DNA of 64,000 nucleotides from Raillietiella orientalis (taxonomy: Eukaryota): contig JAYWIR010000135.1 in NCBI GenBank assembly GCA_036172245.1, positions 1 through 64,000 of the forward strand, in the 5' to 3' direction. This document shows positions 1 through 64,000 of this stretch, piece after piece. Each line of letters starts with the position of its first letter. Positions within the stretch are counted from its first letter, which is position 1. The notes below the pieces were generated by a model. It was not told where the DNA came from. It made no database searches and saw nothing but the letters and a program-made list of their open reading frames with translations. The translations under genes and the position numbers were made by a program.

Positions 1-3000
1 CTGCGTTCTTCGAAGGCCTGCGGCGAGATTGGCTGGTCGAAGCAGAGATGCGAAAGGCGCACCTCATTGCCGGGGACTTTAACGTCCGCCTGCTCACAGG
101 TGCGCCCGACATTCGCGCACAGCTGGTCAACGAGATGCGCGCTGCCATGCACGCGCGCAAGTTGGCCGGTGACGCCGGGACGGAGACGAGGATGGACCAC
201 ATGTTCCTCGACAACCACCTGTGTTCGCGGGTGGGAAATCGTGGGGCAGTGCCATTTGAACTTTCCGACTATCCCTGGCTCGTGCAAGAAATACACCCGC
301 GCGGTGGAGGCATACCCTCCAGAGCGTGGCGTTGTTAGTGGGACTGGTTGCGCCCGCGGGGAGCAGCAACACTGCTCGTTCCTGCAAGGCTTCCATCTGC
401 AGTCGCTCGCGGACTGGGACGACTTGAAGAGCTCAGTCCGTGAGTTCTGAACCGTCTCCTTCCAGGTTTCGGCAAAGGGCTGAGGAACGACCGGGCATAC
501 CACCACGCCCGTCTTTACTCTAGGACTGCCGACGTTCGACGCCTGGCGGAGTATAAAGCTGGGGCTGAGCGACAGACCTAGCAATCCGGGTCGCCCAGCT
601 TGCTGGACGCCCTAGGCCAAGAATGCTCAACTCCGGCAAGAATTAACCGCATCCTGCGGGACTATTACTCCTCCTTGCATACGCGTAGAACAACAGAGAA
701 CGCCGTGGCGCATCGCTTGCTGCCGCAAGGCGCCCCCGCGCTGCAGGAAGAGCAGGCACATGAACTCGCGGAGCCTTTCTCGATGGCGGAGATCGTCTCC
801 GCCATCGGAAAGCTCCGAAAGAGGAAACCACCAGGGGAAGACGGTCTGCCCGCGAAGTTCTATTAAGGCTTCTTGGTGGAGCTGCCTTCCCTGGTGCATC
901 GGCTATGCATGCTGATCCGAGAACAAGGGGACGTCTCCAAATCGTTCCGGTCAGCTAGAGTACGTCTCCTGCCGAAAGGAGGAGACAATCGCAACGTAGG
1001 CAACTGGCGTCCCATCGCAGTAGTGAATGCGGATGCGAAGTTGATTGCCAAGCTTTGGGCTGAGCGACTGGGACGGGTGGAGGAATCCGTGGTGAGTCCG
1101 GAGCAGACATACGCTGTTCCCGGACGAAGCATAGAGGCCAACCTGTTCCTCGCCAGTACATGGTGGCAGTTGCAACAAAACGGAGACCAGGGGGGTCAAG
1201 AGAATCCTGGATTCTCCTCTGCCCAGGGAGGGGACGCCCTTAATGGAAGAGCCGCGCCCGGTGCCCTTGCGGTCGCAGTCGATCGGCGTAAAGCGTTCGA
1301 TTGCGTCGACCAGGAACTACTTCTGGAGCTCCTGGAACGCTTGGGATTCCCGGCCGTCTTCCGGGCTTACCTGCGCTTCTGCTGGCGCTTCGCTCTAATA
1401 AACATCTCTTTTAGCGGTCGGCACGTGTACGGCGTGCCGGTTCGGCGTGGCATAAGGCAGGGTGACAGTCTGAGCCCCTTGCTCTTCAGCATCTACTTCG
1501 AGCTGGTGCTGAGGGCATACAGGGAGACTCTGGCAACCCTGCCAAGCTCGTGTCCCGCGACGCCTGCCGTGTCGGCCTACGCCGACGACCTTCTGCTCCT
1601 GCTCCCCGGGTCCACCCCGGCGTTGGCGCTCGAAGATTTCTTTGAGTTGCTGCGCCGCGGGACGGGCCTCGAGGTGAACAGAGAGAAATCTTCCATCGTT
1701 CCAACATCACCACAACTTTTCTACAATACGGCGTGGGCCGGACGGCCGGACTGGATCCGCTTGGGGATCCCCACGGGCAGGTGCTTCATGTACGTTGGCG
1801 TTCCGTCGGAAGACTTCTGCGTTGCAAAAGCCTGGTCCGACCGTCTCCAAAAGGTAGAGTTGGCGATCGGCCCGTTACGGAACGGCAAGTGTTACTTGCA
1901 GGAGCGGGCCGCGGTGTGGAACGCTTCCGCGGACCCCTCCTTCGCCCCCTACTTTTTGTCTGCCCTACTTCGTATCAAATTAGGACACGGACTAGGGGCC
2001 TTATACGGAAAGCCCTCTGGGGCAACCGGAGGCCTCGCGTCCGGCTCAAAGACTTGTGCGTGCCACGCAGGGATGGTGGACATGGTCTCCTGACGTTGGA
2101 GCGCATGGAGAGGCAGCTCCAATTTATAATACTTGCCCTTGTGGCAAAGTTTTGGACAGCACCCTGGTGTGCACCAGCAAGACTCCTTGCTCACAGGGCA
2201 ACCGGCTGCTTCGGATTGACTTCAATCCTGGTAGCCAACGAACGCAGCCTGAACCATTGTGGTTATCAGCTGCGGGATTTGGTTGCTCTGATGAGAGGCA
2301 ACCCTTGGATCTCCTGCATCCCAGCGGACTGGACTACCTGGCTTCAGGGGTCCGTATCCGCATGGGCGAAGATCAATGGCACCAGCGATGAGGACTTCTC
2401 CTGCCTCCGCAGAAGGAGGCACGCTGGTCAGCCACTCCAGGAGATCCCTTCCAACCCACAGAAACTTCTGTAGGCTTCCTTCACCCCCCTTGCCCCAGTG
2501 CTGCTCTCCCTTAAAGAAGTTCTGGGCAGCAACCAACAGGCATCGTCTGAAGTGTCCTGCCTCATCGGAGGCAGGAAGAAATCACTGAAGGCGTGGACGC
2601 CGACGGAACTAGAGGACGCTAGTACCCCGAGTGTCCCGCCGAACGGACTTTTAAGCTGGGGCGCGCTACTCGGTATACCTCCGGAGGAGGTGAAGTGGCC
2701 CCCAGCGTCATGGGACAACGGCACTTTTCCCTGCAGTGGCAGGAGACGGCGTTGCTTCTGCTCCACTGGGGACTTCTAAGCAGAGCACGCCTGTCTCGCT
2801 GGACATCGGGGAATGTGGATGCTAGTTGTGCAGAGTGCGGGGAAAGGGAGACCTTCCTTTACTTGATTCTGGAGTGTGTTGCCCTCCACGAAATGTGGGA
2901 CAGACTCTCGTCGATCCTCAACATTCCGAAGGGTGACCCGTAAAATTTATTCAGACGCCTTCTGACGCCATACGGCTTGCCAGCCTCCGGGAGCGTAGCA

Positions 3001-3454
3001 GTGCTCTGCTGCATACGCGGTATCCTGGAGAAGTTGACCGCGTCTAGGAGAGGAAGGACCAGCGGAATGCCTTCCACTGGGCAGCGATCTCCTTGGAGAA
3101 AGCGTGCCGTTGGCGCCGTCTTCAAAAACATTTGCCAGCACTTGTTCGCATCCGAAACCGGATGCAAAGGCATGCTCACGGCGCACCGTGGTCCCCTCCC
3201 TCCCTCCCCCTCCCTTGAAAACTTTGCCCTCCAGACGTTTTCCTTTTTTTGTCTTTCTTTTGTTTTATTTTTCCCGTCCCGGCGCCAGTGAAGGACCTTA
3301 TCGACCTCCGGGTCGGTAAGGACAAGTGCTACTGAACTTCTGAACTGAACTTTTGACGTCAAAAAAAAAATTTTTTTAACAACATACACTTTGTTACAAA
3401 ATTTTGTAATTTCAAAATTTTAGTAATAAAAGCCCCGGCTTACCCGGGTGAAAA
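1..3454 (+). mobile_element. LINE copy A1 (5' part outside window): degenerate ORF2 (EN C-terminus, RT, zinc finger) and 3' UTR
   Basis: GDFN..MDH..SDY at 48-338; RT QGDSLSPLLF/YADD in ORF 873-2093; CAECGERE..C near 2830; terminus AATAAAAGCCCCGGCTTACCCGGGTG-AAAA at 3425-3454. Several stops and frameshifts. Confidence 0.93.
873..2093 (+). pseudogene. Non-LTR reverse transcriptase domain fragment (ORF2 of A1)
   Basis: LLPKGGD..NWRPI..DAKL, KAFDCVD, RQGDSLSPLLF, YADDL motifs; flanked by a stop and a frameshift. Confidence 0.93.
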
Positions 3455-4518
3455 ACCTGAGCTGGTCTGGAGCGTTCTTGGCCCTGATGGTCCAGCAAGC
3501 AGGCCGAGCCTGACTGCCAGGCCTGCCTCTCCGCCTCAGCTTTGAATTCCGCGAAGCGACGGACGTCGGGACGCCTGGAATACCGGCAGGTCTCAAGGTA
3601 GGCCCGCTCGTTCCTGACCCGATCGCCGAAGCCCGGCGGAAGACGTTCCAGGGGAAACTGGTCGCAAAACTCGCGGAATGAGCATTTCATTTCGTCCCAG
3701 TCCGCGAGCCTCTCAAGATGGAATCCTCGCAGGAAGGCGCGTAGAAGTTCCGCCGCTCCTACGAGGCGCAACCAGTCCCCTGGCAGGCGCCACGTTTTCA
3801 AGGGAGGGCCCTTATTCCGCGGATGCAACTTAAGCACGAGCCGTAGATGGTCGGACAGCTCTGCCGGGAGCGTTCCTCGAGTTCCCACCCGCGTGCACAG
3901 GAGGTTGTCGACGAACATGTGATCGATGTTCCGATCACTCCCGGCATCACCGGCCAACAAGTTGCGCGCATTCATTGCTGCGCACAACTCGTTGGCCAGT
4001 TGTGCTCGACTGCTGGGCGTACCTGCAAGCAGGCGGAGATTGAAGACGCCCGCAATGAGGTGCGCCCGTCGTAAGCTTGCTTCAACCAACCAGTCTCGCC
4101 GCAGGGATTCGAAGAACGCAGTGCGTTCCTCCGCCCTGTGGTTGCACACCGGAGCGTGCAAGTTCGTGACTATGAAGTCGTTCGAGTCGGACCACTTGAA
4201 AACAAGCTGCCCTACTCGACCGTCCTCGTCGAACCGCACGCTGCGCAGTGTATTTTCGACGGCTGGCTTAAGCAAAAAGGTCACTCCGCAGGAGCGGTCG
4301 TTTCCGTTCCTCCACAGTAGCCGCCTTCCTGCGATTCTTTCGATTTCCTGGACTTCTTTAGCTTTGAGAACGTGCGTCTCTTGCAGGAGCACCAGGTCGA
4401 AGTCTCGCAGTATGGCGGCTACGTCTCGCCTCTTACCGTCGTCGCGCAACCCGTTGACGTTCCAACAGGTGATGCGCAAGCGGCGGCAGGAGGCGATCCC
4501 ACGCATTGGTGCGTTCAT
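3455..4518 (-). pseudogene. APE-type endonuclease and linker of ORF2 (copy K), truncated
   Basis: WNVNGL, LQETH, NLHAP, GVFN (degenerate GDFN), IDH, SDH in ORF 3412-4518. Confidence 0.9.
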
Positions 4519-4524
4519 TGAGGG

Positions 4525-4862
4525 GTTACAAAATTTTGTAATTTCAAAATTTTAGTAATAAAAGCCCCGGCTTACCCGGGTGAAAAACCTGAGCTGGTCT
4601 GGAGCGTTCTTGGCCCTGATGGTCTAGCAAGCAGGCCGAGCCTGACTGCCAGGCCTGCCTCTCCGCCTCAGCTTTGAATTCCGCGAAGCGACGGACGTCG
4701 GGACGCCTGGAATACCGGCAGGTCTCAAGGTAGGCCCGCTCGTTCCTGACCCGATCGCCGAAGCCCGGCGGAAGACGTTCCAGGGGAAACTGGTCGCAAA
4801 ACTCGCGGAATGAGCATTTCATTTCGTCCCAGTCCGCGAGCCTCTCAAGATGGAATCCTCGC
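4525..4862 (+). repeat. 338 bp near-identical direct duplication of 3393-3730, including the A1 3' junction
   Basis: Same sequence at offset 1132; one mismatch noticed (TCCAGC vs TCTAGC). Confidence 0.92.
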
Positions 4863-5420
4863 TCTCAAGATGGATCATCACACTCTCCTTCCTTGTGGCA
4901 GGCGGCTTGTTGGCGGCCGTGACGACGTTCGGCTGCTCACACGGGAGCACGTCGTCCATTACGACTTCCATGTGGCTGGATTCCGAGACACGGATCGGGG
5001 AGGGGTCGCGTGGCGAGACCCACATTGCCTGCTCGACCGTGCCCGAGGACATGGCCTCCTCCACCTGCGGCAGGGACGACCCGTCTCGAGCAACCGGTCT
5101 TCTTGCCAGCCTTCCTCTTCGGCACGGCTGCGGAAGTAGAACAACGGCTTCGGTTTCGGACTCGGAATTTTCCGGGCGCTTCACCGTTGCCGGTCGTCTC
5201 AAGGCCTTCTTCTCGGCCCTGGCAGGCTGCCGTAACATGGCTGCCAGCTCTTCCGCGGCCTGCGCGAAGGTCGCGTCCGTTATCCGCGCCGCCTCCTCGC
5301 TTTGCGCACCGACGCTTTGTGCAGACGCGACAGGGGCGGCTTCATCGATCGGCGCGCAGACGTCCTTCGCTGGCAATGCCGGAATGGCATTGTCGTCAGC
5401 TGATGGTGACGTCACTGCGG

Positions 5421-8040
5421 TTTTCACCCGGATATGCCGGGGCATTTATTTCGAAATATAAAAATACAATAATTTTTCCAGTGTAGAACCCGAAGGCGCA
5501 CCACGCCAAAACAGCTTGCTGGATGCCGGCGCTATGCCGGAGAGGTCCTTCCGATGCGCGGGGGTTGGGAAAGAAAAGAACAAACAAACAAAATGTTCAA
5601 ACACGGGAGGGGATAAATGTTTTAGGGATGGGAGCGCAGGGAAGGGATCACTATGCGCCCGGAGAGGTCCTCTAGATCCTTTTCAGGATGCGGACAAGCT
5701 GTTTCCTCTGTGCGCCTAAGTGGCGCCAATTGCATACAGCTCGCACTAATAGGCGAGTCCATCGTTAGGCGTTGCCAGTTGGCTGACGTCTTCTTCTGGT
5801 GGCGTTCCAAGCCGCCACGATCCCTAATGCAGCAGAGGATTGCTACAGAATCGGGGGGGGACAAGGCGTCACTACAGAGGAAGCGCATGAAAACGTCCTT
5901 CGGGCCGCATACGCGCAAGTTCAGAAACGCCGTTAGGCGATTCCATAAAGGGCGGATGGCACTACACTCAATTAGAAGGTGGGGAAAGATCTCTTTTTCC
6001 TCACACCGGTCGCAATGGGGATGCACAGCCCCCCGAGTGGTGTGGTACAAACGTGGTTTACAGAGTAAACCCCACTGCATTACAAGCAACGCCACCTCCT
6101 ACCATTTGAGGGGGAGGGATCCACTGTTCCAGGACGCTGGGGGCCACTTCATCTCCTCCGGAGATAGTCCGAGTAGCTCGCCCCAGCGTCGAATTCCGTT
6201 GGGCGGGACACTCGGCGTCGCAGCGTCAGCTAGCTGCCGAGATGTCCACGCCTTTATCGATTGTGTCCTGCCACCTATGGTGCAGGACACGGTCCATTTC
6301 CCCTGCTCGCTACTGTCCCTCGCATTCACAAGGAAGGGCAGCACTAGGGCGAGGGGGGTTATCAAGGCCCACAGAAGCTTGTCGTTGGACTGCACGATCT
6401 CCTGCAGCGCCCAGCGGGCATGCTTTTTCAGGCAAGTGTTCTTTGTGCCCGCCGCTACGTAGATCTTTTCCCAGGTGGAGACTAACTCGTGCCACCATGC
6501 CGAGTAGATCCCTGGGAGGCAGGAGATCCAGGCGTTCTCCAGAACCGCAACGAGGATGCCACGCAGCATAGAGCCACAGTGTGCTCTTCTGCAGACGCGC
6601 GCAGACGGAAACGACAAAAGTCCACCGGATCCGCAGGCTCGTTGGGCCAGGAGGCGTGCTGGAACGCACCAAGGCGTGTCCCACAATTCTGCCGCGAGAG
6701 AGAGAGTCCTGAAGCGAAGTTGTAATTCGATGCGCTCCAGCGTAAGTACGCCAAGTCCTCCGTCCTTACGTGAAGCGCACAAGTCTTTGAGCCTCACACG
6801 GGACCTCCCTTTGCCCAAAAGAACTGTCCTCAGGAGGCCCGCTGCTCTTTTCCAAACAAAATGAGAAATGGGGCACACAAAAAAGTAGGGGGCGAAGAAA
6901 GGGGGCCTCAAACGCGTTCCACACCTCCTCCCGTTCCTGCAAGTAGAACTTGCTTTCTTGGAACGGACCGATCGCCAACTCTGCCTTTTGGAGACGGTCG
7001 GACCAGGCTTCTGCTGCGCAGAAGTCCCCCATCGGAACGCCTAGGTACTTGAAGCACCTGCCCGTGGGGATCCCCAAACGGATCCAGTCCGACTGTCCAG
7101 CCCACGCCGAACCGACAAAGACCATGGATGACTTCGCCATGTTCACCTCCAGGCCCGTCCCGCGGAGCAGCAACTCGAAGAATTCCTCGAACGCACTCGC
7201 CGGGGTGGACCCGGGAAGCAGCAGCAGAAGATCGTCTGCGTATGCCGACACGGCAGGCGTGCCGGCACACGAGCTCGGCAGAGTTGCCAGAGTTACCCTG
7301 TATGCCCTTAGCACCAACTCGAAGTAGATGCTGAAGAGCAAGGGGCTCAGGCTGTCACCCTGCCGGATGCCGCGTCGCACTGGCACGCCTTACACGTGCC
7401 GGCCGCTGAATCCAATATTGATATACGCGTTGCGCCAGCAGGAGCGCAGGTAAGACCGGAGCACGGAAGGGAAACCCAAGCGTTCCAGGTGCTCCAGAAG
7501 GAGATCCTGGTCGACGCAGTCGAATACTTTGTGCAAATCGACCGCGACGGCAGAGGCTCCCCCCGAGTCCGTCCTTTCTTCTGCATGATCTTCTTGGTCA
7601 GAGGGGAGGGCGAGGCTTCCTTGATCATCCTGAGCAACGCGTTGTCGCAACTGCCACGATGAGATGGCGAGGGGCAGGTTGGCCTCCATGGTTCGTCCGG
7701 GAACAGCGTAGGTCTTCTCGGGACTCACCACGGAAGCGGCCACCCGCCCCAAACGCTCAGCCCACAACTTGGCATACAACTTTGCGTCCGCATTCACTAC
7801 TGTGATGGGACGCCAGTTGCCGATGTTGCGTAAGTCTCCTGATTTCGGCAGGAGACGTACTTTTGCTGACCAGAACGAGGCGGGAACTTCGCCGTGTTCG
7901 CGGATCAGAGTACTTAACCTGAGCACCAGGGGGGCCAGCTCTGGCGCGAAGCGATGGTAAAACTCCGCGGGCAGGCCGTCCTTTCCTGGTGCCTTTCGTT
8001 TCTTCAGCTTTGCGATGGCGGAGACGACCTCCACCATCGT
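5421..8040 (-). mobile_element. 5'-truncated LINE copy L (RT, zinc finger, 3' UTR) inserted in ORF1 of K
   Basis: KAPGKDGL, NWRPI, QGDSLSP, YADD, CDRCEE..H..C; minus-strand terminus AATAAATGCCCCGGCATATCCGGGTG-AAAA at 5450-5421. Confidence 0.9.
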
Positions 8041-8749
8041 TAACTTTGGTGAGTCCACAAGACACAGCGTGGCGAGTCCACAAGAGAGGCGTGCGACATT
8101 ATCGATCGGATTCGCGCGCCTTGACATTGCGTGCACTGTGGCCAACTGCTTGAGTGCAACAATGATGTCGCGATTTCTCATTCTAGGCCCAATGCCCGAG
8201 AGCTGGACCACGAACGAATGTTCCAGGGCTGAGGAGACGAACTTTTTTCCCCTGATTTTGAGGGGCGTTCGAAGTATGCGCTGGACGAGGGCCGCATTTT
8301 TGCAGTGCACCTCCCGATGGCCCTCCGCGCTCACTGGCATAAGTGCCAGGAGATCGTCGTCTCGGACCCCTACGCGTTCCAGATCTCTCCAGTGCTGGTT
8401 CCCCGTCCCATCCCGGTAGGCGGCACTGACCTTGTAGGTCATAGGGGGGTTGCAGCGGCTAGCGGCGTACGCTCGTAGCTCTGCTTCGTCGGGTGGGGCT
8501 GCGTGAGCTGCTGCTGCCTTATCAACGGCGGCAAAACTTCTCGCTGTAGGCGAGGGACGATAGGTGAAGGCCTCCACTCCTCCCGAAAAAGTTCCTGCAA
8601 CGCAAAAGGATTCCTCCACCTTTATTTCTGCAGGCACTAGCTCCATTTCCGATTGGAAAAAGATCATCACACCCAAAAGGAACAACAGCATAAGAATTCT
8701 AAATACGGGGCGCAGGAATGCACGTCCGAAAAATGAAGTAGGTCGTCTG

Positions 8750-9483
8750 TCTATCCCCAGAGATAAGCTGAAGTGGCCCCCAGTGATCAATAAATCCAGG
8801 ATACTGCCCTCCAAGTGGCAAGAGTCGGTGTTGCTCCTCTTGCATTGAGGTCTACCCTGCAACGCACGCAGCTTCCACTGGACGAGAAGAGCTGTGGATC
8901 CTGCGTGTGCCAGGAGAAAGGAGCGGGAGTCGCTCTTCCACCTTATTGTGGATTGTGCTACCCTCCGATCCCTCTGGGAACGGTTCAAGACGACCCTCGG
9001 GATCCCGACGGGTAGTGCAATTGAAGACGTTCTCCGGCATCTCTTCGTGCGGGACGTCATGCAGCCCGCCGCAACCCTCGCAGCTCTCTTCTGCATCCGG
9101 TATATCCTGGCGGCCTAGAGCGACATTCGCGACGAAGGAGTAGATGCCAACGAGAGGGAAGGCATTCCGTATGCAGTGAGCTTTATGCGAAATGCAGCGA
9201 GATGGCCCCATTTGGGACAAACGCAGAAGGACCTAGAGAGCATCCTGCGAAGGATGGGCCCTCCTCCTAGTAGATACTGATTCCTTCCCCTCCCTCCAAA
9301 CTCCTTTTTCTTGCTTTATTTTATTTTTGTTTTCTCTTAAACTCCCCTCCACACCCGAGGAGCGTCGCGCTGGGCTGCGTCCCGGCGTCCCGGCAGGTCC
9401 GGTGTTGGGCGGCCGTTAGTGGTTCCTCGAACCAAGTTTTTGTAGAGTTTTCAATAAACGCCCTGGGCGTACCCGGGTGGCTA
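8750..9483 (+). mobile_element. 3' fragment of LINE subfamily D (D1)
   Basis: LKWPP..KWQES, CARRKERE..H..C; 3' UTR matches 32024-32240; terminus AATAAACGCCCTGGGCGTACCCGGGTG-GCTA. Confidence 0.88.
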
Positions 9484-9580
9484 CCCCGAATCCCCGTGGC
9501 AGGCGGTGCAAGGAGAACTCCTCGAAAAACTCGCGTACCGAGACCTTGAAAAGGTCTTATTCCTGGAGATTGCTGAGGGT
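9484..9580 (-). pseudogene. ORF2 linker fragment of a subfamily C host; continues at 22290-22995
   Basis: Reads TLSNLQE*DLFKVSVREFFEEFSLHRLPRGFG on the minus strand. Confidence 0.8.
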
Positions 9581-9662
9581 CGAGCGGACGTGTCTTTTCG
9601 CTGCTCCTGAGTTTCATTTCCGTTGGTGGTTGTGCGTGGTAAGGGTGGAGGATTAGGCAGCA

Positions 9663-11301: not shown

Positions 11302-11504
11302 TGCCGGGAATCGCCTCCCGTCGTCGTCTGCCGATCGCCTGCTGGAACGTCAACGGTCTAACCGACGACCGCAAGAGACGTGACGTGGCCGCCACTTTGG
11401 CATCCTTAGACCTGGTGCTGCTGCGGGAGATCCACGTGATCTCCGCAGACGAAGCAACGGAGATCGAGCGTATCTCGGGTGGACGGCTGCTGTGGCGTTG
11501 CGGC

Positions 11505-13413: not shown

Positions 13414-14044
13414 ACTTCAACCTGCGCCTGCTTCCTAGTGCGCCGGCCACACTGAACGACCGCGTCAACGAGTTGTGCGCGCAAATGCAGACGTGCAACT
13501 CTCTGGCCGGAGATACAGACATGGAACGCAGCATCGATCTCGTTTACCTTGACCAGCACCTATGCTATTGCGTGGGCAGGCGCGGCAAGTTACCGTCCGA
13601 GCTGTCTGACCATGGCCGAATCGTGTTCGAAGTGCATTCGCGCGACAACGGCCCCCCCTCGTCAGAGTGGCGTCTCCTAGGGTACTGGCTGAAGCGTGCG
13701 GACGCGTCAGAACATCTCAGGCGCGTTCACACGGAACTTCGGGTTGCGGACGCTTCAGGACTGGGACCGCTTCAAGCGGTCGGTTCAGGAGTTCTGCGAA
13801 CGGTTTTCTCTACATCGCCTACCTCCAGGATTTCTGGAGGGGCCAAGAAACGAAAGGTGCTATCATCATGCTTGACGTTACGCGAAAACCCCCGACATGC
13901 GCATGTTAGCAGCTTCTTGAGCTGGAGCCGGGAGTCAAGCCTGGCAATCCGGGTCGGAAAGCTTGCTGGACGACCAGGGCCGGGAGCACGCAACTCCTGC
14001 TCAGAAGCGCGGGATTATCCGCAAATTTTACTCCTCCCTGTACG

Positions 14045-22995: not shown

Positions 22996-22997
22996 TA

Positions 22998-54200: not shown

Positions 54201-56846
54201 CAGAACTCCCGAAACGAGGCCTTAAAAGGGTCCCAATTCGTATGATTCTGGAGCGTGACGCCTCTGAGAAATTTGCGAAGGTGTTCCTTCGCAACTGAGA
54301 GTCGCGTCCAGTCCCCCGGAAGACGCCAATCGCTACATCACGGTCCCTTGTTGCGAGGCCGCATCTCGAAAATTTACCGGAAATGTTCCGACAACGTCGA
54401 CGCAACCCTCCCCCGTTTGCCGACCCGTGAACACAGGTCAGCGTCCAGGAAGACGTGGTCCATGCTGCGGACCATTCCCCTCTCACCCTCGAACAAGTTG
54501 CGCGCACGCATGGCGGCGCACAACTCTTTCAACGCGTTCACTTGTGTTTCCGGCTCACCTGTTAGCAGGCGGAGATTGAAATCTCCCGCTATCAGGTGAG
54601 CCTTCCGCACGCTCGTGTTCGCCAGCCAGTCGCGCTTTAGGGATTCTAGCAGCCTGGTACGGTTGCTGAATCCCTTTTGACAGGTTGGGGCGTACACATT
54701 CGTGACGATCAGATCGATCGAGTCGGACCAGCCGAGAGTCAGCTGACCGACCCGACCGTCGTCATTGAAGCGCACGCCCTTCACGGCAGCGTCAATGGCC
54801 GGCTTCACGAAGAACGCAACCCCGCAGGTGTAGCGGATGCCGCATTGCCAGTACAGCCGACATCCCGCGATCCTCTCGATCTCCTGAACGTCTACCTCGG
54901 TGATCACGTGGATCTCCTGCAACAGGGCCAGATCGAACTCCCGCAGGGTCTCGGCTGTATCACGCCTGTTACCGTCCTCGCACAGCCCGTTGACATTCCA
55001 ACAGGCCGCGCGAATCCGACGGCGGCTGCGAGCCCAGGTGTTACTCCTGGGAACATGGCATTGCGGCGTCCGCCAGATGCTGGGGCGGGACGCTAGGTAA
55101 AGGAGGGGGGTCAGGTGTTGAAGGCACCTGGTACCCCTCCTCCATAGGAGACTGTACGTCGAGCGGGTCACCCAAGGGTGGGGTCGCGCCTACCTGATCG
55201 CCCTCCTCCATAGGGGCGGACTGTTCAGGGTCGGCGCCTGCAGGGGGGACTTCACCCCCCTGTTCAGCCTCCTCAATGGGGGTGGCCGGATCGACGGCTT
55301 CCGAGCGTGGGAATTCCTCCTCCGAATTTCCCACGCTGGCGACGGCTTCCGTCTTCTCCTCCTCGCTGGTGGAGGGGAGGCGCCTCCTGGGCTTCTGAGA
55401 CTTGCGTCCCGACTGCCTGGGGAGTGCCTCCGAGGAGGAGGATGTACTTCCGGCCCCCAGGTCTTACTCACCTGTAGGGATTTTCTTCGCCGGAGCCGGC
55501 CTTCGCACGGCCTTCGCACGGCCTTCGCACGGCCTTCGCACGGCCTTCACACGGCCTTCGCACGGCCTTCGCACGGCCTTCGCACGGCCTTCGCACGGCA
55601 AACAGAAGGTTCGCCGTAACGAACCTCGGGCGCCTCGGAAACGTCAAGGGGAGGATCGTCGCTCCGGGTGGCAACCTCGGGAACGACGATTCGTTCCAGT
55701 GCCACCGTGCACTCGCGCAAAGTTTTCGAGCGCGGACTGGGTTCTTTCGGCCTACCGGCCGTCTTGCGCTCTCTGCTCTCCGCGGGTGGGAGTTTCTTTT
55801 GCTTTCTGGCCTCTACAAGCTGCCTTCCCTCTTCGCCTTCCACCGTTTCAGAAGGTTTATCCTCTGGCTTACGCACCGGAGGTTGTGGTGTTGGCAGATT
55901 GTGCTGGCCCTTTTCCACTTCAGGTCTAGAGACCTTTGAAGCGCGTTTCCCCTGCGCTTTTTTCGCGGCAGGGGGAACCGGGGTGGGGCGTTTGGGGCAC
56001 ACGCGCCGAACGTGGCCCTTCTCCCGCACAAATGGCATTGTATATTGGGACACCTTTTACGTAGGTGTTCCACGGTATCACAATGCCCGCAATACCGGGG
56101 CTTCATAACATATCACAGGGCGACGTTTTCTTGCGCCACCTGTAGTTCGTGGAGAAGCCCACAATTCTCCCTTACGATGACCAGCGCTGCAGCCTGCTTA
56201 CCAAAAAGGCTATTGAAGCCGTCGAAAATGGAGGGTTTCGGCCACACTGCGTGCACCTCAGCGTACTTTCGCAGTTACTCACCAACCGCTGACCGCGTCA
56301 TGCGGCTGGTGATGCCAGTCATGTGGACCACCACGGAGCGGTCCATTGATACTGGCAGGATCTTGCGGCCGTCTACGTTCAGCGGCGCATGGATTAAGCG
56401 GTGAGCCAAAGTGACATCTTTGCAGACCACCTCGACCCGCTGCCCGCCGCTGAGGACGGAGAGGCCGTCCTGATCCTTCTCAGTCACATTCGCGTCGTTC
56501 AACGCTTTGCTGTAGACGCGCGCTGTCCGGCAGTCGAACAAGTTGCCTACCTGGTACACAAGCGATGGCTTGTACCCGGAGTCCGTGTATGCGGCCATCT
56601 CCGCCATGGTTTCTGCGCTGGGCGCGGCCACAATGGCGCTCCATGTCGTCGGCGTGGCCGGGATGATTCCGGGGCGGCTGCCCCTGCTCCACTAGGCTCT
56701 GATGGCGAACTAACCTCCCCCACTCCCAGCTCCATCGCCGTGTCCTCTGGCGTCGTGGCCGTTGGACACCGACGATGTACACAAAACACCACAAACAAGA
56801 AAGCGCTTTCCTTCTACTCTTCGAGGAGTGAAGAAAGAACACGTCC
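51229..56846 (-). mobile_element. Full-length degenerate LINE copy E (~5.6 kb)
   Basis: 5' GGACGTGT at 56846; ORF1 to 55041 (CGHCDTVEHLRKRC); EN, RT, zinc finger; terminus AATAAACGTCCCGGCGTATCCGTGTG-GCA. No TSD found. Confidence 0.9.
55497..55599 (+). repeat. 11 bp tandem repeat (CGGCCTTCGCA) x ~9.4 within ORF1 of E
   Basis: Directly visible; one variant unit (CGGCCTTCACA). Confidence 0.97.
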
Positions 56847-56854
56847 TCTAACTG

Positions 56855-56992
56855 GCCTTGGAGGGGTCTGGCTGCAACGATGCAGCCATCTCCTCCGCCG
56901 CACGCTCGAGGGAGGCGTCATCGATCACGGTCTCGATGACGGACCCTTCCGCCGGTTCACTCCCCACGCTGTTGACATTTTCAACAGTGGGT
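56855..56992 (-). pseudogene. ORF1 fragment paralogous to 58063-58202
   Basis: PTVENVNSVGSEPAE..ERAAEE; about 11 mismatches in ~137 bp by eye. Confidence 0.85.
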
Positions 56993-59494
56993 TTGCCACC
57001 CGGATATGCCAAGGCATTTATTATTCTAATTTTCTACAAAAATTAGATAATAAAGTCTTTCAAACGTTAATTGTGGGAAACACTTGGATTTCCCACCTTG
57101 GTTGACGTGTCTGTTGCCGGTGCATAGACCGGTTAGGTCCATTCCCGAGGCGCATGGGAAGGGAAAACTAGAGCAAAAACAAACAAAAAGAGAGATAACA
57201 AGGAGGGAAACAGTTGTATGGGGAGAGGGGGGGGGCAAGGAAGGGATCACTGAGCGCCTGGGTCGGTGCTCCGCATCCTGTTCAGGATACATTCAAGTTC
57301 TGTTTTAACTCTGAAAGGTAGACGCCACCTTGTCGCCGTCTCTAAAGAGATCGTCGTCCACTGGATGGCTTCCCTGCATCTTGGGCTTCTTCTTCTGGCG
57401 TGCCACCTTTGCACAATGCCGCGCACGCAGCAGAGGACTGCTAGAGACGCAGCGGGGCGCAGGCCGTCACGCACAAAGAGGCGACGGTAAATTTCCTTAG
57501 GGTCGCCTACTGGAAGATGGAGGATTGGAGCTATTCTACTCCAGAGTCCATCCAGGGCGACACACTCGAGGGTGAGATGCGGGAAGGTTTCTCTTTTTCC
57601 GCACTCGACACAGCGGGCATCCACATTTCCCAGTGTCCAGTGAGACAGGCGTGCTCTGCTTAACAGTCCTCAGTGAATCTCTTCCCGGAATTACTGCCGG
57701 GAAGATGACGGTGTGGGGGAACCCGCCTCTTCCGAGGCGGGTGAGATGAGCATTAGGGTTTCAGCCTCCTCAGGCACCTTGGGTACCATTCCGGCATCAA
57801 CCCCCTCCATCTCCTCCGTGTCTGTGCGTGGTGGTCTCTCGGGTGACGATTCGCGGGATTCTCCCACGCTCATGGCACCCTCGCGGTCGGAAGTGATCTC
57901 CACGCCTTCGACCTGGAGAGGGGCTTTCCGGGGTTTGCTGGATTTCCTTCCAGCCTTCCGGCGGGGTGCCGCGGAGATGGAAACTTGGTTTCCGGCCTGC
58001 GCTTCGGGGTCGGAAGTTACAGACTCCTCGGTGGAGGCCGGACGCCTCACTGCCTTTTTGCCAGCCTTGAAGGGGTATGGCTGCAACGATGCAGCCACCT
58101 CCTCTGCCGCACGCTCTAAGGCGGGGTCATCGATCACGGTCTCGGTGACGGACGCTTCCGCCGGTTCGCTCCCCACGCTGTTGACATTTTCAACAGTGGG
58201 TTGCTCGTCGGTAGCAGCGATTTCTACCTTGCGGCGTTCGGCGTGGACGCGTTCCACGACGACACTGCATTCTTTTAAATTCTCGCTAACCTGCTGTTTT
58301 TTATTTTGGTAGGCGAGCTTTTTTTCGAATCTTCGTTCTTTCTTCGACATTTTTTTCTTTTTCGCTGTGACTTCTTGCCATTCCAACACCTGACCGCTTT
58401 TGTCAATCTTTTCGGCATTCGTTGCCGGGTTGTCGGCTGAGGCGTGGACCACGGGAGTGGGTGGCACAGCTTGAGTGGCAGCCTTCGCCGCCAGTTTTTT
58501 CTGTAGGAGCCGCGCGCGTTTTTTTAGGTTCCTCGCGGAAATCATGCGCACAGCGGATTGTGGACAGTTCCTTCGTGTGGCCCATTGTCCCGCATACTTG
58601 GCACTGTACGTTGAGGCACCTCCTTTTGAGGTGTCTCGACGTGTTGCAGAAGCAACAGTATTTGGGCTTCCCCACGTACCAGAGGTCGACGCTTTCTCCG
58701 CCGACCACCAGTTTGTGTGGAAGGGGAGAGTCCTCCCGAACGGTTACACGGGCAGCCGTGAGGCCGCACTAAACTGTGGTATTGTCCTCGAAAGGACTAG
58801 GCTTGTTCCATACTGCATGGACCGTGCCTTCTTTTCCCAACCCGACGCGTAACTGTTCTTTCCGCATCCGCGCGGTAACTCCTAAAAGGTGGACCACCAT
58901 ACTGTGGTCCGCCGTAACGAGAAGGAGCCTGCGTGTCCCCATTACCTCGAGAGTTTTAAGCAGACGTTGGGCCAGATCTGCATGTTTGCAGATCACCTCT
59001 ACGTACTGCCCCCCGCTACGAATGGTCATAGCGCAGAGCTCCTCTTCTTTAAGATCGAGAGCGCGCATCCCCTTCGAAAAGGCGCGCGCACTCTCAGCAG
59101 AATACAAATTTCCTACCTTGTAGAATAGTGATGCGTTATACCCCTTTTCCACATAGGCAGATAATTCCGCCGCGGCTGCAGGCGATGGCGCCGACACGAC
59201 GGCGCTCCACGCCCGCGCTGCAGCGGGGACCGGTTTTGGGGGGGCGGACGCCTTCACCTCCTTCTCCACTGAAGGCGACGTTGCCGCGGCCCCCTGGCAC
59301 TTCACCTTCTCCAGAGGCGACGTTGCTGCCGCCACCTGGCACTCTATTTCTTCAGGAGGCGACGTTGCCACCGCCCCCTGACACGTACTGGTGGTCGCGT
59401 CAGGCATTGCTGCCTGATCGACCACCACCACACACGAAGCCTACACCTAGGGACGGTTCTCGGCACGAGGAGCACCGAGGAAACCCGTCCGCTC
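56993..59494 (-). mobile_element. LINE G2: 5' end and ORF1 joined directly to the zinc finger and 3' UTR (EN and RT absent)
   Basis: 5' GAGCGGACGGG at 59494; ORF1 ends at 57691; jumps to H*GLLSRARL near 57675; G-type 3' UTR and terminus. Confidence 0.8.
59255..59385 (-). repeat. 42 bp coding repeat x3 (QGAAATSPxExxxC) in the ORF1 N-terminus
   Basis: QGAVATSPPEEIEC QVAAATSPLEKVKC QGAAATSPSVEKEV in ORF 58769-59431. Confidence 0.8.
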
Positions 59495-59501
59495 TAGCCG
59501 A

Positions 59502-59957
59502 CGTAAAGCCTTCGACTGCGTCGTCCAGGAGCTCTTTCTGGAGCTCCTGGAACGCTTGGAATTTCCGGCCGTCTTCCTGGCCTACCTGCGCTCCTCCTGG
59601 CGCTTTGCGTTCATCAATATTAATTTCAGCGGCCGGCAGGTGTTCGGCGTGCCGCTTCGTCGTGGTATCCGGCAGGGTGACAGCATCACCCCCTGCTCTT
59701 CAGGATCTACTTTGAGTTGGTGCTGAGAGCATACAGGGAGACTTTGGCAACCCTGCCGAGCTCGTGTCCCGGCACGCCTGCCGTGTCGGCCTATGCCGAC
59801 GATCTTCTGCTTCTTCTTCCCGTGTCCACCCCGGCATCGGCGCTCGAGGACTTCACCCAGTTGCTATACCGTGGGACAGGCCTCCAGGTAAGCAGGACGA
59901 AGTCGTCTTTGCTTTTCACCGACTCGACGAGGGCCGGACGGTCGGACTTGATTCGCT
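59502..59957 (+). pseudogene. RT core fragment (RKAFD to beyond YADD)
   Basis: CGTAAAGCCTTCGAC at the start; ORF 59717-59959 contains YADDLLLLLP. Confidence 0.88.
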
Positions 59958-60000
59958 GAGCTGGGTTTTGCTCAGGGAGCTGACCAAAAACGCGTGCGGC

Positions 60001-61130
60001 ACCGGCGAATGTTTGCCGCAGTTTGCGGGATTTTTACTTCTCTCTTTACGCCTAGAGGCCACCTGGGCGCCCTCTTGCGCAGCGTCTGCGGCCAGAGGGT
60101 GCTCCCGCGTTAAGGGAGGAGGAACGGCACACCTTCCAACTGGAATTTACGATGGCGGAGATTGTCTCCGCCATCAAGAATCTAAAAAAGAAGAAAGCAT
60201 CAGGGAAAGACGGCCTGCCAGCTGAATTCTATTAACACTTCGCGGCCGAGTTGGCTATCCTGGTGCTCAAATTCTGTTTGCTGATCCGTGAACGCGGGGA
60301 TGTCCCAAGCTCGTTCCGGTCAGTTAGAGTACGTCTCCTACCTAAGGGTGAAGGGTGAAGTGGCCCCCGGCGTCGTGGGATAATGGCACCCTTCCCCTGC
60401 AGTGGCAGGAGACGGCGTTGCTTCTGCTCCATTTGAGACTGTTAAGCAGAGCGCGCTTGTCTCACTGGACACAGGGGAGTGTGGATGCTAATTGTCCTGA
60501 CTGTGGGGAAAGAGGAACCTTTCCTCACTTGATTATTCAGTGCGTTGTCCTTCGCGATATGTGGGACCGACTCTCGTTGATCCTGAACATTCCGGTGGGA
60601 GACCAAAAACATCTATTCAGACGCCTCCTGAGGCGAGACGGCTTGCCAGCCTCCGGGTGCGTAGCAGTGCTCTGCTGCATACGCGGTTTCCTGGATAAGT
60701 GGACCGCGTCAAGGGGAGGAAGAACCATTCGGATTGCCATCCACTGGGCAGCGATCTCTTTGGAGAAAGCCTGTCGTTGGCGCCGACTTAATAAACATTT
60801 GCCGGCACTTGTTCAAATCCAAAACAGGATGCAAAGGCCTCCTCACGGCGCATTGTGATCTCCTCCCTCCCACCCCATCCCCAAAAAACATTGCCCTCCA
60901 TACGTTATTCTTTGTTTTTTGTTTTATTTTTATTTTCCCCGTCCCGGCGCTAGTGAGAAGGACCATATGGGCCTCCGGGACATTTAACGACAAGTGCAAC
61001 AACACGACGATAAACTTCTGAATGTCCTAAAGAAGAAAATTAACTTTGTTTAAAAATTTAGAACTTATTATGAAATTTTTGTATTCTTAAAAATTTTAAT
61101 AATGAAAGCTTTGGCTTACCCGGGTAATAA
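60001..61130 (+). mobile_element. LINE copy A2: linker to VRLLPKG fused to VKWPP, zinc finger and 3' UTR (RT core missing)
   Basis: 3' part homologous to 2690-3454; terminus AATGAAAGCTTTGGCTTACCCGGGTA-ATAA. Confidence 0.82.
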
Positions 61131-63893
61131 ACCTGCGCTGGAGATGAGTGCTCCTGGCCTTCTTCGTCCAGTAAGCAGGCAGACCCGGATTGTCAGGCCT
61201 GCCTCTCAGCTGCAGCCTTGAACTCCGCCAGGCGACGGACATCGGGCTTGTTAGAGAAACTTCGGGTGTGGAGATAGTTTCGGTCGTTCCTCAAGCCTTC
61301 GCCAAATCCTGGAAGAAGTTGATAAAGGGGAAACTCGTCGCAGAACTCTCGGACTGAGCGTTTTATTTTGTCCCAGTCAGCGAGAGTCCGCAATTCGCAA
61401 CTACGCAGGAATGCGCGCAGATGTTCGCGCGCTCCTGCGAGTCGCAACCAGTCCCCGGCAGGCGCCACGCTTCAGAGGGTGGACCTTTGTCGCGCAGATG
61501 AATGTTGATCACTAGCCGAGGGTGATCGGACAGCTCCGACGCAATTGCTCCTCGAGTCCCCACCCGCGTACACAGGTGGCTATCGAGGAACACGTAATCG
61601 ATTCTGCGTCACACGTCGGCTTCATTAGCCAACAAGTTGCACGCGTGCATCGACGCACACAACACGTTGACCAGTTGTGCTCTTATGTCGGGCGCTTCCG
61701 ACAGCAGGCGGACGTTGAAGTCTCCCGCTATCAGGTGCACCCGCCGCACGCCTGCTTCGGCCAACCAGTCTCGCCGCAGGGCTTCGAAGAACGCAGTGCG
61801 TTATACGCGCCTGTGGCTGCTGTAGGGCGCGTATACGTTCGTGACCACGAGGTCGATCGAGTCGCACCACTTTAGAACAAGTTGCCCAACTCGTCCTTTC
61901 TCGTCGAACTGTAAACTGCGCACTGCCTTTGCGACGACTGGCTTCAGCAGGAAGGCCACTCGGCGAGAGTGGTCTCCACCGGATCGCCAAAGTAGCCTTC
62001 CTCCCGTGAGCCTCTCGATCTCCTGGACGTCCTCTCCCCTGAGGGCGTGAACCTCTTGGAGAAGTGCCAGATCGAAAGGTCTCAGGGTGTCGGCCACGCT
62101 ACGTCTCTTGCTTTCGCTACGCAGCCCGTTGACATTCCAACAGGCTATACGCAGTTGCCAGCAAGAGGCGATTTCACGCATCATGCTAATGATGGTGGTG
62201 GCGATTGTGTAGCCGCCTCTTGTTCGGGAAGCGTCTGGTCGATGTCCACTTGCATGGAAGGCGTTTCCGTAACGACCGGTACGTCGGCAGCCGGATTGAG
62301 GTGAATCGGAAGATCGGAACGAGCGGTTTCCACGGAGGGATCCCGCGACCTCGCGGGCATCGCCTCCTCGCTACCCGAGCGCATTTCCTCCTCCACAGCC
62401 TGAGGGGGAGCGACGCGCATAGGGTTGCGGGACTTCCGGCCCGCCTTCCTCTTCGGGAGGGCGACGGTAAGAGCGTTTCCGGCTTCCGCCTCGGAATCGG
62501 AAGTTTCCGGTCCTTTGGCTTCCGCCGGACGTCTAACGGCCTTCTTTGCAGCCTTAGGCGGCTGCATTAAAAGGTGGCCGCGAGCTCCTCCGCCGCCTTC
62601 GCGAAGTTTTTCTCGTCGCTGCTGCTGGCGTTCTTGTTGCAGGATTCCTACGGCGGTTCCGCGGCGTTCGCGAGGGTTGCGGGAGTCGCGTTTGCCGATC
62701 GACGTTCGATCGACGGAACGCGCTCGATGTTAACGCGGCATTCCTTTATTATTTCGCGCGTCGTGATTTTTGTTTTGCCGTTCGCGGTTTTTTTCGGTTT
62801 GCTCGGGTTCTGTTTTAAAGATTTTTTGTGTTTTTCGTTATTGGGATTTTGATTCTTAGTTTTTTTGGTTGCCACTAGTTTCCAGTTTTCCTCGCCGATG
62901 GTTGGTTCAGAAGTCTCCTTTTGATTCTCTTGTTCCTTTTGTTCGGCTTGTTCTGAGTTTGGCTGTTTGTCGCTCTTTGCTCTTTTTTTTCTGCCTTCTT
63001 TCCTTTTTTTGAAATAGGGGTTTCAGGCGTTGTAGCGGCGTTTTCCGGACACAAAACGCTTGTGTGGCACTTAGCGCCGCACGTTGGGCATGTGGCGTCC
63101 GGGCATCTCTTTTTAAGATGATTAAACGTGTTGCACAGCCCGCAGTATTCTTGTGTCCCTACGTACTAGAGATCAACGAGCTCGTGGTTAATCTCCAGCT
63201 TATGGGGAATTTGGATGTTTTCGCGGAGTGTCAAGCGAGCGGCAAGTCGCCCACTAAATGTTTCTCTATATGTGAAGGCGTTGGGCTTCTTCCACATCGC
63301 GTAAATCTCTGCGAACTTGTTAATTTCAGTGCGGATGGCTTCGTCGCTCATCCGCATCGTTGTTCCTGTTAGGTGAATTACTATCAAATGATCCACCGTG
63401 TGTGTGTGGAGATTCCACCCTTCAAAGGGAACAAGCGTTTAGAGCAGTTTGTGCGTGAACGCTGCATCTCTGCAGATGAGCTCCGCAAACTGCCCTTCGC
63501 TCCGTACCGAGAAGCACAGAATCTCCTCCTCTGTAATGCCCATCCTACAAATGGCGTTTCCAAATTTCCGCGTAGTTAGCGGTGAGTATAAATTCTTTAC
63601 CTTGTACAGCAGGGCTGAATTGTAGCCTTCTTTGATGTAGGCTTGCACTTCTGCAGCCGTGTCTTTCGGAGCCGCCGTGGCCACTTTATTCCAAGCCCTA
63701 TCCGGGTTGGCTGGGGCTGATTTTGTGGTGGGGCATGACCCCACCTCCATAGGTTGGGGAGACGTGGGTCTCACGCTTCCCGTCGCAGGTGTTGCTGCGT
63801 CTCCAGGCATTTCTGCCTTCGAACGGCCGCACTTCCACCCACGAAAACTTCTTCGTAGGTTACGCTCGCGGGAGCTCACCAAAAACGCGTGCG
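61131..63893 (-). mobile_element. 5' half of LINE subfamily F (5' UTR, ORF1 63810-62186, endonuclease from 62184)
   Basis: YNSALLYKV, PHKLEIN..VDL, CGLCNTFNHLKRRC knuckle; WNVNGL, GDFN, SDH; cut at SSPAQV by A2. Confidence 0.9.
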
Positions 63894-63919
63894 ACCACAA
63901 CGAAGGTGGGCCGCATCGT

Positions 63920-64000
63920 GCCAAAAGGTAGAGTTGGCAATCGGCCCGTTCCTGGAAGGCAGGTTCCTTCTGCTGGAACGTGCCGCTGTGTGGAACGCGT
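63920..64000 (+). pseudogene. ORF2 fragment downstream of the RT core, running off the window
   Basis: QKVELAIGPFLEGRFLLLERAAVWNA. Confidence 0.8.

Follow-up and report, generated by a model that had tools for sequence, protein, structure and literature searches.

The DNA analysed here is a stretch of 64,000 nucleotides from Raillietiella orientalis (contig JAYWIR010000135.1, positions 1-64,000), which we call the window; this one 64-kb piece is the scope of all the junction results below. Most of it is occupied by copies of long interspersed nuclear elements (LINEs) that lie inside one another. In a tblastn map, protein matches to ORF1 and ORF2, the pair of open reading frames (ORFs) in these elements, span 55,417 of the 64,000 bases (86.6%), and the bases without a protein match are mainly 3' untranslated regions (3'UTRs) of 230-430 bp and the linkers between ORF1 and ORF2. 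The G+C content is 54-61% along the whole window, which is rich in long, interrupted reading frames, and self-comparison of the window gives 61-94% identity among the element copies. A first-pass annotation had proposed that LINE lineages insert site-specifically into other LINE copies, and within the window this core idea is upheld by precise junctions that recur independently. We consider it likely, taking the two statements jointly, that one L1-like LINE family, split into at least six diverged lineages, makes up the nested array in the window, and that these lineages insert at defined sites in one another.

The reference copy, element M (39901-45396, minus strand), has an ORF2 of 1,199 codons (40150-43749) with two in-frame stops. 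The ORF2 products match the Pfam profiles PF03372 (Exo_endo_phos; 55.8 and 47.5 bits, cutoff 24.5) and PF00078 (RVT_1; up to 83 bits, cutoff 29.6), with an endonuclease of the apurinic/apyrimidinic type N-terminal to the reverse transcriptase as in the L1 clade, and PF13966 (zf-RVT) scores slightly below its cutoff at the ORF2 C terminus (24.1 and 26.6 bits, cutoff 27.5). Translations of ORF1 show two C-x2-C-x4-H-x4-C zinc-knuckle motifs, and the Pfam scores obtained on ORF1 are both below the cutoff (zf-CCHC, 19.4 bits, cutoff 20.8; zf-CCHC_6, 20 bits, cutoff 22). The closest solved relative of the part from endonuclease to reverse transcriptase is human L1 ORF2p (E = 9e-30), with residues 347-522 of M ORF2 aligning to residues 392-569 of the human protein, the L1-type linker/tower region. 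R2 proteins were matched over the reverse transcriptase core only, and only in a separate search with the ORF of element K (E 2.7e-12 to 2e-4). A word-based protein search returned just five matches, at 24-37% identity and with partial coverage. When the ORF2 at 27024-29474 was compared exhaustively with 1.84 billion representative proteins, two had E < 1e-30 (62% and 60% identity) and the remaining matches had at most about 35% identity. Having two close protein relatives only, the family seems to belong to a very poorly sampled organism. Among the sequencing runs that contain the window there was no RNA run, and a single DNA run with 0.14 of the sampled words.

All copies have a common design of 3' end, which consists of AATAAA, one base, a short hairpin, A-Y-CCGGGTG and then 2-4 bases. 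A terminus profile built from the termini of the first-pass annotation gave 16 matches in the window, with the rest at noise; these comprise the 15 distinct termini listed before and a sixteenth at 4585. All 16 lack the poly(A) tail of L1-clade and Zepp elements and show at most 1-4 A. Pairing of the hairpin, A-N-G-C / loop / G-C-N'-U, holds in 88% of cells, and two of its four pairs have compensatory changes. Its second pair is C-G (8), U-A (3), A-U (2) or U-G (1), and none of 500 shuffles had a covariation as high as that of the termini (0.44, against 0.19 in shuffles). A CCCGG/CCGGG stem, first spotted by eye, is conserved but shows no covariation, and was rejected. At the other end, full-length copies start with (C)G(T/A)GCGGACGTGT; a search for 5' ends with two mismatches permitted found six real ones and one chance match, and the 5' end of M was determined by direct reading.

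All 16 of the 3' termini adjoin LINE coding sequence, as had been annotated for the 15 distinct ones. That contact is unsurprising, because the LINE-dominated composition of the locality alone predicts it. The orientations given earlier, 11 antisense and 4 sense, are also correct for these 15, the sixteenth terminus being a recent duplicate. Recurrence at homologous host codons, the further observation of that annotation, stands as well: the four shared ORF2 sites GVTLRNL, LPxGFG, S.PAQV and GD^FN agree to 0-2 nt when placed on the reference ORF2 (40150-43749, minus strand), on which all host positions are given.

GVTLRNL, codon 279: junctions 22289 and 46053, at the identical nucleotide.
LPxGFG, codon 306: junctions 9483, 26675, 32024 and 51229, within 1-2 nt.
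S.PAQV, end of codon 362: junctions 3454, 4586 and 61130, at the identical nucleotide.
GD^FN, codon 165: junctions 13413 and 46397, within 1 nt.
YSSLY, codon 374: single junction, 14045.
RKAFD, codon 582: single junction, 25282.
ESAL, codon 1064: single junction, 39901.

The ORF1 junctions 5421 and 56993, which had been listed without a claim of homology, appear from their surroundings to be homologous too. Both are sense, both stand beside an xCC-(ACT/GCA)-GT(T/G) triplet run, and they sit 23-25 codons upstream of a conserved I-D-D/E motif; their two hosts have no detectable nucleotide similarity to each other. There are eight host sites in total, five of which are used more than once within 1-2 nt. 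After removal of two recurrences derived from duplication, the 16 termini represent 14 independent 3' junctions, and 11 of these fall in the five recurrent sites (three at LPxGFG and two each at GVTLRNL, S.PAQV, GD^FN and the ORF1 site). We compared this clustering with a uniform model, in which 14 independent junctions are placed in either orientation on an element of 5.5 kb and coincide if they share an orientation and lie within 3 nt. Seven coincident pairs were observed against 0.06 expected, and none of 200,000 simulations reached seven. Just downstream of one of these targets, GVTLRNL, the ORF2 antisense at 31880-31945 (minus strand) resembles an element 5' end (GCGAAGGTGTTTTTTCGCACCTGAGAG against GCGGACGTGTGTTTTCG...CTCCTGAG), a 13-mer match of a kind expected by chance about once per window.

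The elements and hosts that form these junctions are as follows, in order along the window.

1-3453, plus strand: element A, with its 5' end beyond the window; ORF2 from codon 141 to the end, and 3'UTR; terminus 3453, donor at S.PAQV (tblastn map and terminus profile).
3454-5421, minus strand: host B; ORF2 codons 362-7 (3454-4525) and the C-terminal part of ORF1 (4862-5421), split by the duplicate at 4526-4861.
4526-4861, plus strand: 336-bp duplicate of the A/B junction; 60 bp of the A terminus and 276 bp of B.
5422-8729, minus strand: element E; terminus 5422, sense, at the ORF1 site of B; an internal deletion joins ORF2 1150-403 straight to ORF1 218-81, and the 5' end near 8729 is placed from resemblance only.
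8730-9482, plus strand: element F (3' part); terminus 9482, donor at LPxGFG in host h.
9483-9580, minus strand: host fragment h; ORF2 codons 306-279, Hx-type; left target-duplication copy at 9564-9580.
9581-22288, plus strand: element G-U-Q, P-type, whose host is h plus V; pieces G (9581-11507), U (13413-14044) and Q (19949-22288), split by G2 and R; terminus 22288 at the GVTLRNL site.
11508-13412, plus strand: element G2, 5'-truncated at ORF2 codon 666; terminus 13412, sense, at GD^FN of G-U-Q; host codons 80-164 are absent on its 5' side.
14045-19948, minus strand: element R, full length (5.9 kb); terminus 14045 at YSSLY of G-U-Q.
22289-22969, minus strand: host fragment V; ORF2 codons 279-53, Hx-type; right target-duplication copy at 22290-22306.
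23000-25281, plus strand: element W, 5'-truncated near codon 524; terminus 25281 at RKAFD.
25282-25419, minus strand: 138-bp piece of W's host.
25420-28420: probable segmental duplicate (~3 kb) of 49967-52985; a plus-strand host at 25420-26674 (ORF1 end and ORF2 1-306) and minus-strand element K from 26675, joined at LPxGFG.
28421-29033, minus strand: W-like ORF2 segment, codons about 700-493, fused in frame to K; adjoins the 5' end of Hx at codon 493.
29034-32023, plus strand: element Hx; 5' end, ORF1 and ORF2 codons 1-305; interrupted at LPxGFG by I.
32024-35033, minus strand: element I, piece 1; terminus 32024, ORF2 codons 1199-279; left copy of the P target duplication at 35017-35033.
35034-46053, plus strand: element P, full length; pieces 35034-39900 and 45397-46053; antisense into I at GVTLRNL; holds M.
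39901-45396, minus strand: element M, full length (5,496 bp); ORF1 and ORF2; antisense into P at ESAL.
46054-46396, minus strand: element I, piece 2; ORF2 codons 278-166; interrupted at GD^FN by N.
46397-49660, minus strand: element N, of a divergent lineage; terminus 46397, sense, at GD^FN of I.
49731-51228, plus strand: host Y; ORF1 end and ORF2 codons 1-306; interrupted at LPxGFG by S.
51229-56851, minus strand: element S, full length; terminus 51229; the 5' end at 56851 adjoins an unrelated ORF1 fragment.
56852-56992, minus strand: ORF1 fragment of 141 bp, 92% identical to 58064-58201; host of the Z terminus, sense.
56993-59495, minus strand: element Z; 3' part 56993-57675 (Z3), joined to a part with 5'UTR and ORF1.
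59496-61129, plus strand: reordered A-type pieces (BB); ORF2 codons 578-729, 357-474 and 1040 to the end; terminus 61129 on S.PAQV of AA.
61130-63893, minus strand: host AA, Y-type; ORF2 codons 362-5, ORF1 and a probable 5' end.

Target duplications are seen at three of these insertions. M is flanked by a perfect 12-bp duplication (39889-39900 and 45397-45408), and its excision in silico leaves a continuous P-type ORF2. P, with M inside it, has a perfect 17-bp duplication, and removal of P rejoins element I; the nesting here is three levels deep (M in P in I in Hx). G-U-Q has P's 17-bp duplication at the identical position with 14 of the 17 bases kept, and identity to P is 82-88% for each of its pieces G, U and Q (for U it is 82%, against about 64% with every other copy). 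The 17-bp duplication is therefore present in both of the complete GVTLRNL insertions, whereas the flanks of R, S and Z do not match. Two contigs from public data lack the inserted elements. A 374-base contig of run X1, a public DNA data set, links 39888 to 45396 and represents the ESAL site without M, and a second contig of that data set runs along element I as far as 35033 and then into the 13 bases that lie at 46071, as in an I-type copy without P. Since the contig data set may be the window's own source, these contigs confirm the structure and are not independent evidence of mobility.

We related the choice of site to donor lineage by means of a tree built from the last 650 bases of 15 donors. 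One group contains K with S, F with I, and R, of which four are on LPxGFG and R is on YSSLY. P and Q, both on GVTLRNL, form another group, to which W (RKAFD) and then M (ESAL) are next related, and A and BB stand together on S.PAQV. G2 and Z are grouped, with E nearby; E and Z are on the ORF1 site and G2 is on GD^FN, the site also of N, a very divergent donor. The site labels require 8 changes on this tree (minimum 7; K was omitted from the count), which was equalled by 59 of 5,000 shuffles (P = 0.012). As related rows share labels through kinship, the association of donor and site is suggestive and not strict. Insertion among the lineages is reciprocal: the S/I clade has entered Hx-type and Y-type copies, the Hx-type element R has entered a P-type copy, P-type elements have entered Hx-type and S-type copies, and M has entered a P-type copy. 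P-type copies are without the GVTLRNL target sequence in their own ORF2, and the ORF2 of A-type copies and of M differs from its target at junction-proximal bases.

Some 5' junctions are also placed precisely. R joins one P-type host at codon 374 with its 3' end and at codon 493 with its 5' end; 354 bp of the host are missing and there is no target duplication. In a W-like host, the 5' end of Hx (29033-29034) meets codon 493 at that very nucleotide. The differences between R and Hx bear a signature of selection (p = 0.0025 and 0.018), and the two hosts are 78% identical (p = 4e-5), so the 5' junction at codon 493 recurs independently. Microhomology was rejected as the cause of this common junction, only 2 nt being in agreement, and second-strand cleavage is possibly sequence-specific there. 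In a plus-strand host, the 5' end of Z (59495) is at the RKAFD site, about 15-24 bp away from where the RKAFD 3' junction falls, an offset expected of a target duplication at RKAFD. S and Z each have two flanks from different elements.

Duplication, recombination and deletion have clearly altered the array, either in the course of insertion or later. K resembles S as far as about 28420 (92% identical to S) and W from there on (90% to W, 70% to S); an 816-codon frame (27024-29474) stays open across the switch, which marks either a recombinant or the end of the ~3 kb duplication. The mosaic nature of K makes its ratio of non-synonymous to synonymous substitution rates (dN/dS) against S misleading when taken over the whole length (0.40); split at 28420, the ratio becomes 0.84 and 0.17. 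Internal deletion or reordering is seen in three copies: E, Z and the A-type copy with its terminus at 61129. Over its endonuclease part (46056-46394), I is 89% identical to S (54240-54585) and neutral (dN/dS 0.85), a contrast with the overall values for the two elements (80%, 0.32) that suggests mosaicism or gene conversion. What is left of ORF2 in Z (57675-57682) starts exactly at the downstream edge of M's ESAL target, so that a deletion breakpoint coincides with a known nick site, and among the scrambled A-type pieces at 59496-61129 one boundary lies in the S.PAQV region (codon 357). An A-rich filler of A runs and AAT repeats (49645-49715) between the 5' side of N and Y is the sole junction tract of its kind.

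Pairs of elements that share a site were compared by codon-position counts and by Nei-Gojobori dN/dS on in-frame codons. Junctions copied as DNA after insertion are predicted to differ neutrally and equally on both sides, and the K/S duplicate served as an internal neutral control. The hosts at shared sites belong to different subfamilies and are about 64-77% identical. Each line gives the pair, its site, the nucleotide identity, the P value for an excess of third-position differences, and dN/dS.

Hosts Hx and Y, LPxGFG: 65%; P 3e-8; dN/dS 0.25.
Hosts V and I, GVTLRNL: 77%; P 0.005; dN/dS 0.44.
Hosts B and AA, S.PAQV: 74%; P 3e-10; dN/dS 0.27.
Hosts U and I, GD^FN: 67%; P 3e-4; dN/dS 0.25.
Donors Q and P, GVTLRNL: 85%; P 0.001; dN/dS 0.43.
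Donors I and S, LPxGFG: 80%; P 4e-13; dN/dS 0.32.
Donors G2 and N, GD^FN: 61%; P 5e-8; dN/dS 0.17.
Donors A and BB, S.PAQV (108 codons): 84%; P 0.15; dN/dS 0.32.

Between A/B and BB/AA, a downward step in identity falls exactly at the junction, with about 83% before it and about 73% beyond. V/h is Hx-type and I, the host of P, is S-type; P-type donors have thus struck one codon in two host lineages. Q has more unique changes than P (128 against 79, p = 0.0007), which is consistent with the decayed target duplication of G-U-Q. P and G-U-Q have the 17-bp target duplication in common but were inserted separately and at different times. The fragment h (98 bp) is 83% identical to Hx, and V differs from Hx with a signature of selection (p = 0.014).

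Sequence-specific insertion has to be weighed against a number of contrary observations, which are given in this and the next paragraph beside the explanations to which they lend weight. The recurrent junctions could be inherited, if a few original insertions had been copied by segmental duplication, unequal crossing-over or gene conversion and had then diverged, and copying of this sort does occur in the array. The stretch 4526-4861 is a 99.6%-identical, 336-bp copy of the junction region 3391-3730, and junction 4586 is accordingly a copy of 3454. Because the right edge of this copy lies in a 13-bp microhomology (CTCTCAAGATGGA), a read-through retrocopy was dismissed and DNA duplication preferred; the copy suggests a DNA-level template switch. 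The stretches 25420-28420 and 49967-52985 are 88-94.5% identical in each 200-bp window on both sides of the junction, have flat codon-position differences (31/36/35 and 35/29/39; dN/dS 0.84 and 0.74) and equal branches to the outgroup (48 against 66, p = 0.09; 62 against 59, p = 0.8). In view of the even identity, the neutral pattern and the equal branch lengths, junctions 26675 and 51229 were counted once; their sequences are most simply explained by one insertion and a subsequent duplication of ~3 kb, with separate insertions of the same age still conceivable. For the LPxGFG donors F and I, which are 79% identical, the codon-position test gives only p = 0.06, and F is taken as independent of I on the basis of the 98-bp h and the assumption that h and V are one element. 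Frequent recombination is visible, too, in the mosaic K and in numerous non-matching flanks. The remaining shared sites nevertheless do not look inherited. Their hosts are 64-77% identical where the donors are 79-85% identical, and at GD^FN the relation is reversed (donors 61%, hosts 67%). A signature of purifying selection, absent from the true duplicates, is found in host and donor pairs; different host subfamilies occur at one site; identity changes in a step at the A/B and BB/AA junction; and P and G-U-Q differ in age, in the decay of the target duplication and in their later insertions. As a complete explanation, inheritance is refuted by the codon-position and dN/dS comparison, and we regard it as quite unlikely. 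The first-pass annotation had held that site-specific insertion would fail if the recurring junctions all descended from segmental duplication of single insertions; within the window this is the case for two recurrences (4586, and 26675/51229), and the other shared sites have hosts that diverged under selection.

Integration might instead be aimed at a region, for example at centromeric chromatin, and the sites might be hot spots common to all lineages through a short nick preference or DNA structure. Celine of poplar, for example, is described as confined to centromeres without sequence specificity (PMC11288735). In the window, GD^FN has been taken by two unrelated donors, G2 and N; G2 and Z3 are 93% identical over 683 bases, yet lie at GD^FN and at the ORF1 site, respectively; and R is at YSSLY despite its membership of the LPxGFG clade. 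With these three cases, the earlier rule that each subfamily has its preferred site holds only approximately, as a clustering of site labels on the donor tree. A regional or hot-spot preference does not, however, account for the reuse of one nucleotide within clades, at LPxGFG by three independent S/I-clade donors, at S.PAQV by both A-type donors, and at GVTLRNL by the two P-type donors, whose 17-bp staggered cuts are identical, nor for site labels that track the donor tree (P = 0.012), and we judge it unlikely. No short nick motif common to the eight sites was found on inspection, which tells against hot spots of this kind and also against sequence-specific insertion. Specificity could also be carried by RNA, if transcripts with a few flank bases, or a 3' end that pairs with the nicked target, led to re-insertion at a site of the type of origin; RNA-carried return to like sites has been reported for R1-type elements. 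This would account for the near-identical G2 and Z3 at different sites, and the ambiguous A at most junctions fits one-nucleotide pairing of a terminal A with a T-ending primer. But inspection of element ends and target flanks revealed no homology past 0-2 nt, just a frequent single A/T at the junction, and the sole read-through-like piece (4526-4861) ends at a 13-bp DNA microhomology and is better seen as a DNA duplication, so that we hold RNA-carried specificity to be very unlikely. Further points on the contrary side concern sequence-specific insertion as such. The evidence for it comes from one window. Matching flanks and a target duplication are found in only three of the six elements with both ends clear (M, P and G-U-Q, against R, S and Z), and E, with flanks that are probably also mismatched, would be a fourth case. 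The donors I, R and W have a near-copy of their own target, and there is no rule of self-immunity. The idea that target sites occupy the most conserved ORF2 segments was rejected, because their percentiles of window identity span 0.14 to 0.92, with values over 0.8 for GDFN, RKAFD and codon 493 alone. In metagenome contigs a degenerate terminus pattern was found 0 times, and a profile of six reverse transcriptase segments, run against metagenomes, gave 126 pattern matches of which 0 were confirmed.

With these points taken into account, we still consider it likely that several LINE lineages insert into each other's ORF1 and ORF2 by sequence-specific target-primed reverse transcription, and that duplication and recombination then scramble the products. 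This proposal starts from what the window shows: 3' junctions that recur precisely and independently, target duplications, and an association of donor clade with site. New copies would enter at defined sequences in the ORF1 or ORF2 of other copies, where the element endonuclease or a protein-RNA complex would nick one strand at a fixed nucleotide; that this component supplies the specificity is suggested by analogy with what is established for R1, R2 and Tx1-type elements. The reverse transcriptase would begin on the hairpin-bearing 3' end of the RNA, with the hairpin replacing poly(A) as the start signal and probably serving as the recognition element of the enzyme. A cut of the second strand at a fixed distance would create the 12- or 17-bp target duplications, and second-strand nicking would be specific at least sometimes. 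Each lineage would mostly use its own site, usually in antisense, the lineages would insert reciprocally, and segmental duplication, in-frame recombination between copies and deletions would later scramble the array. Such targeting may benefit the elements. A more far-reaching version, which we offer as tentative and rather doubtful, is a closed ecosystem in which the integration machinery of each lineage has evolved to recognize a short coding sequence of its rivals and some lineages have lost their own copy of it, as may be the case for P-type elements, which are without GVTLRNL and hit it in two other lineages. On this view, insertion would give an element a safe harbour and also act as a weapon, mutual parasitism would enlarge the array, which is possibly a centromere, and second-strand cleavage would perhaps be sequence-specific, with R removing a defined piece of a rival's reverse transcriptase.

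Known elements share parts of this behaviour. Tx1L of Xenopus has an apurinic-type endonuclease and ORF1 zinc knuckles and integrates at a defined sequence in another transposon. By description, then, the window elements resemble Tx1L and the target-specific L1/Tx1 group in endonuclease type, zinc-knuckle motifs in ORF1 and a defined target. The target in the Tx1 group is a DNA transposon or a multicopy RNA gene, however, whereas in the window it is the coding sequence of a sister LINE, and reciprocally so among lineages. R1 and R2, in the 28S ribosomal RNA genes of arthropods, are described as inserting to the nucleotide into a multicopy target, with a fixed distance between the two nicks, priming from an RNA 3' end that is structured, and frequent 5' truncation (PMC1919474, PMC10499050), and on these descriptions the window elements are like them in precise insertion, structured 3' end and 5' truncation, and probably in stagger. 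They differ in that R1 and R2 target a host gene family and not retrotransposons, that the R2 endonuclease is restriction-like, and that R1 and R2 coexist without inserting in each other's reading frames, unlike the lineages of the window.

Nested LINE clusters are known from green algae. Zepp (Chlorella and Coccomyxa) and ZeppL-1_cRei (Chlamydomonas) are described as L1-type LINEs that occur almost solely in nested, often 5'-truncated clusters (PMC8226300, PMC3446292, PMC9940879), which are said to come from insertion into existing copies and are thought to mark green-algal centromeres (PMC8226300, PMC3446292, PMC9940879, PMC11005252). The window elements likewise form nested clusters inserted in one another. 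In Table 3 of PMC3747384, Zepp and L1-1_CR end in (A)n and 5 of 15 green-algal L1 families are without a 3' repeat. The window elements end in a hairpin without poly(A), and owing to the poly(A) end of Zepp and L1-1_CR they are not filed as Zepp-like and are set apart by the 3' end as described. The accounts of Zepp and ZeppL clusters in these sources have one family per cluster and give no nucleotide-level target, whereas in the window several lineages of 60-85% identity cross-insert at fixed codons. Two plant cases are also relevant. The poplar LINE Celine is reported to be concentrated in centromeric chromatin and often nested in retroelements, with a target duplication unique to each copy that indicates regional targeting, where the window shows one nucleotide reused (PMC11288735). 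Plant L1 lineages of the Stringent type have a conserved 3' hairpin with compensatory changes that is taken as a reverse-transcriptase recognition signal (PMC3747384, section 4.3). In this they are like the window elements, but they end in poly(A), and site specificity is not reported for them in that account. A full-text search of the literature, whose coverage left the original Zepp papers outside, found no report of LINE lineages inserting at each other's fixed codons. Site-specific LINEs and Zepp-type nested clusters are both known; what is new is that several LINE lineages cross-insert at fixed codons.

Site-specific LINEs persist by targeting multicopy host genes, and in the window a dense array has been built by LINEs without touching host genes. 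How a LINE locates a cluster of the Zepp type is left open in the treatments of these clusters in PMC8226300, PMC3446292, PMC9940879 and PMC11005252. For one family, the window offers a testable answer, which is the recognition of defined sequences in other copies, with different sites for different lineages. If this were true genome-wide, it would provide a sequence-based mechanism for the origin and growth of centromere-like arrays built by retrotransposons, and a natural case of competition between transposon lineages at the level of DNA. It would also provide a set of related endonuclease and reverse transcriptase proteins with different known targets, which would be useful for studying how LINE specificity evolves.

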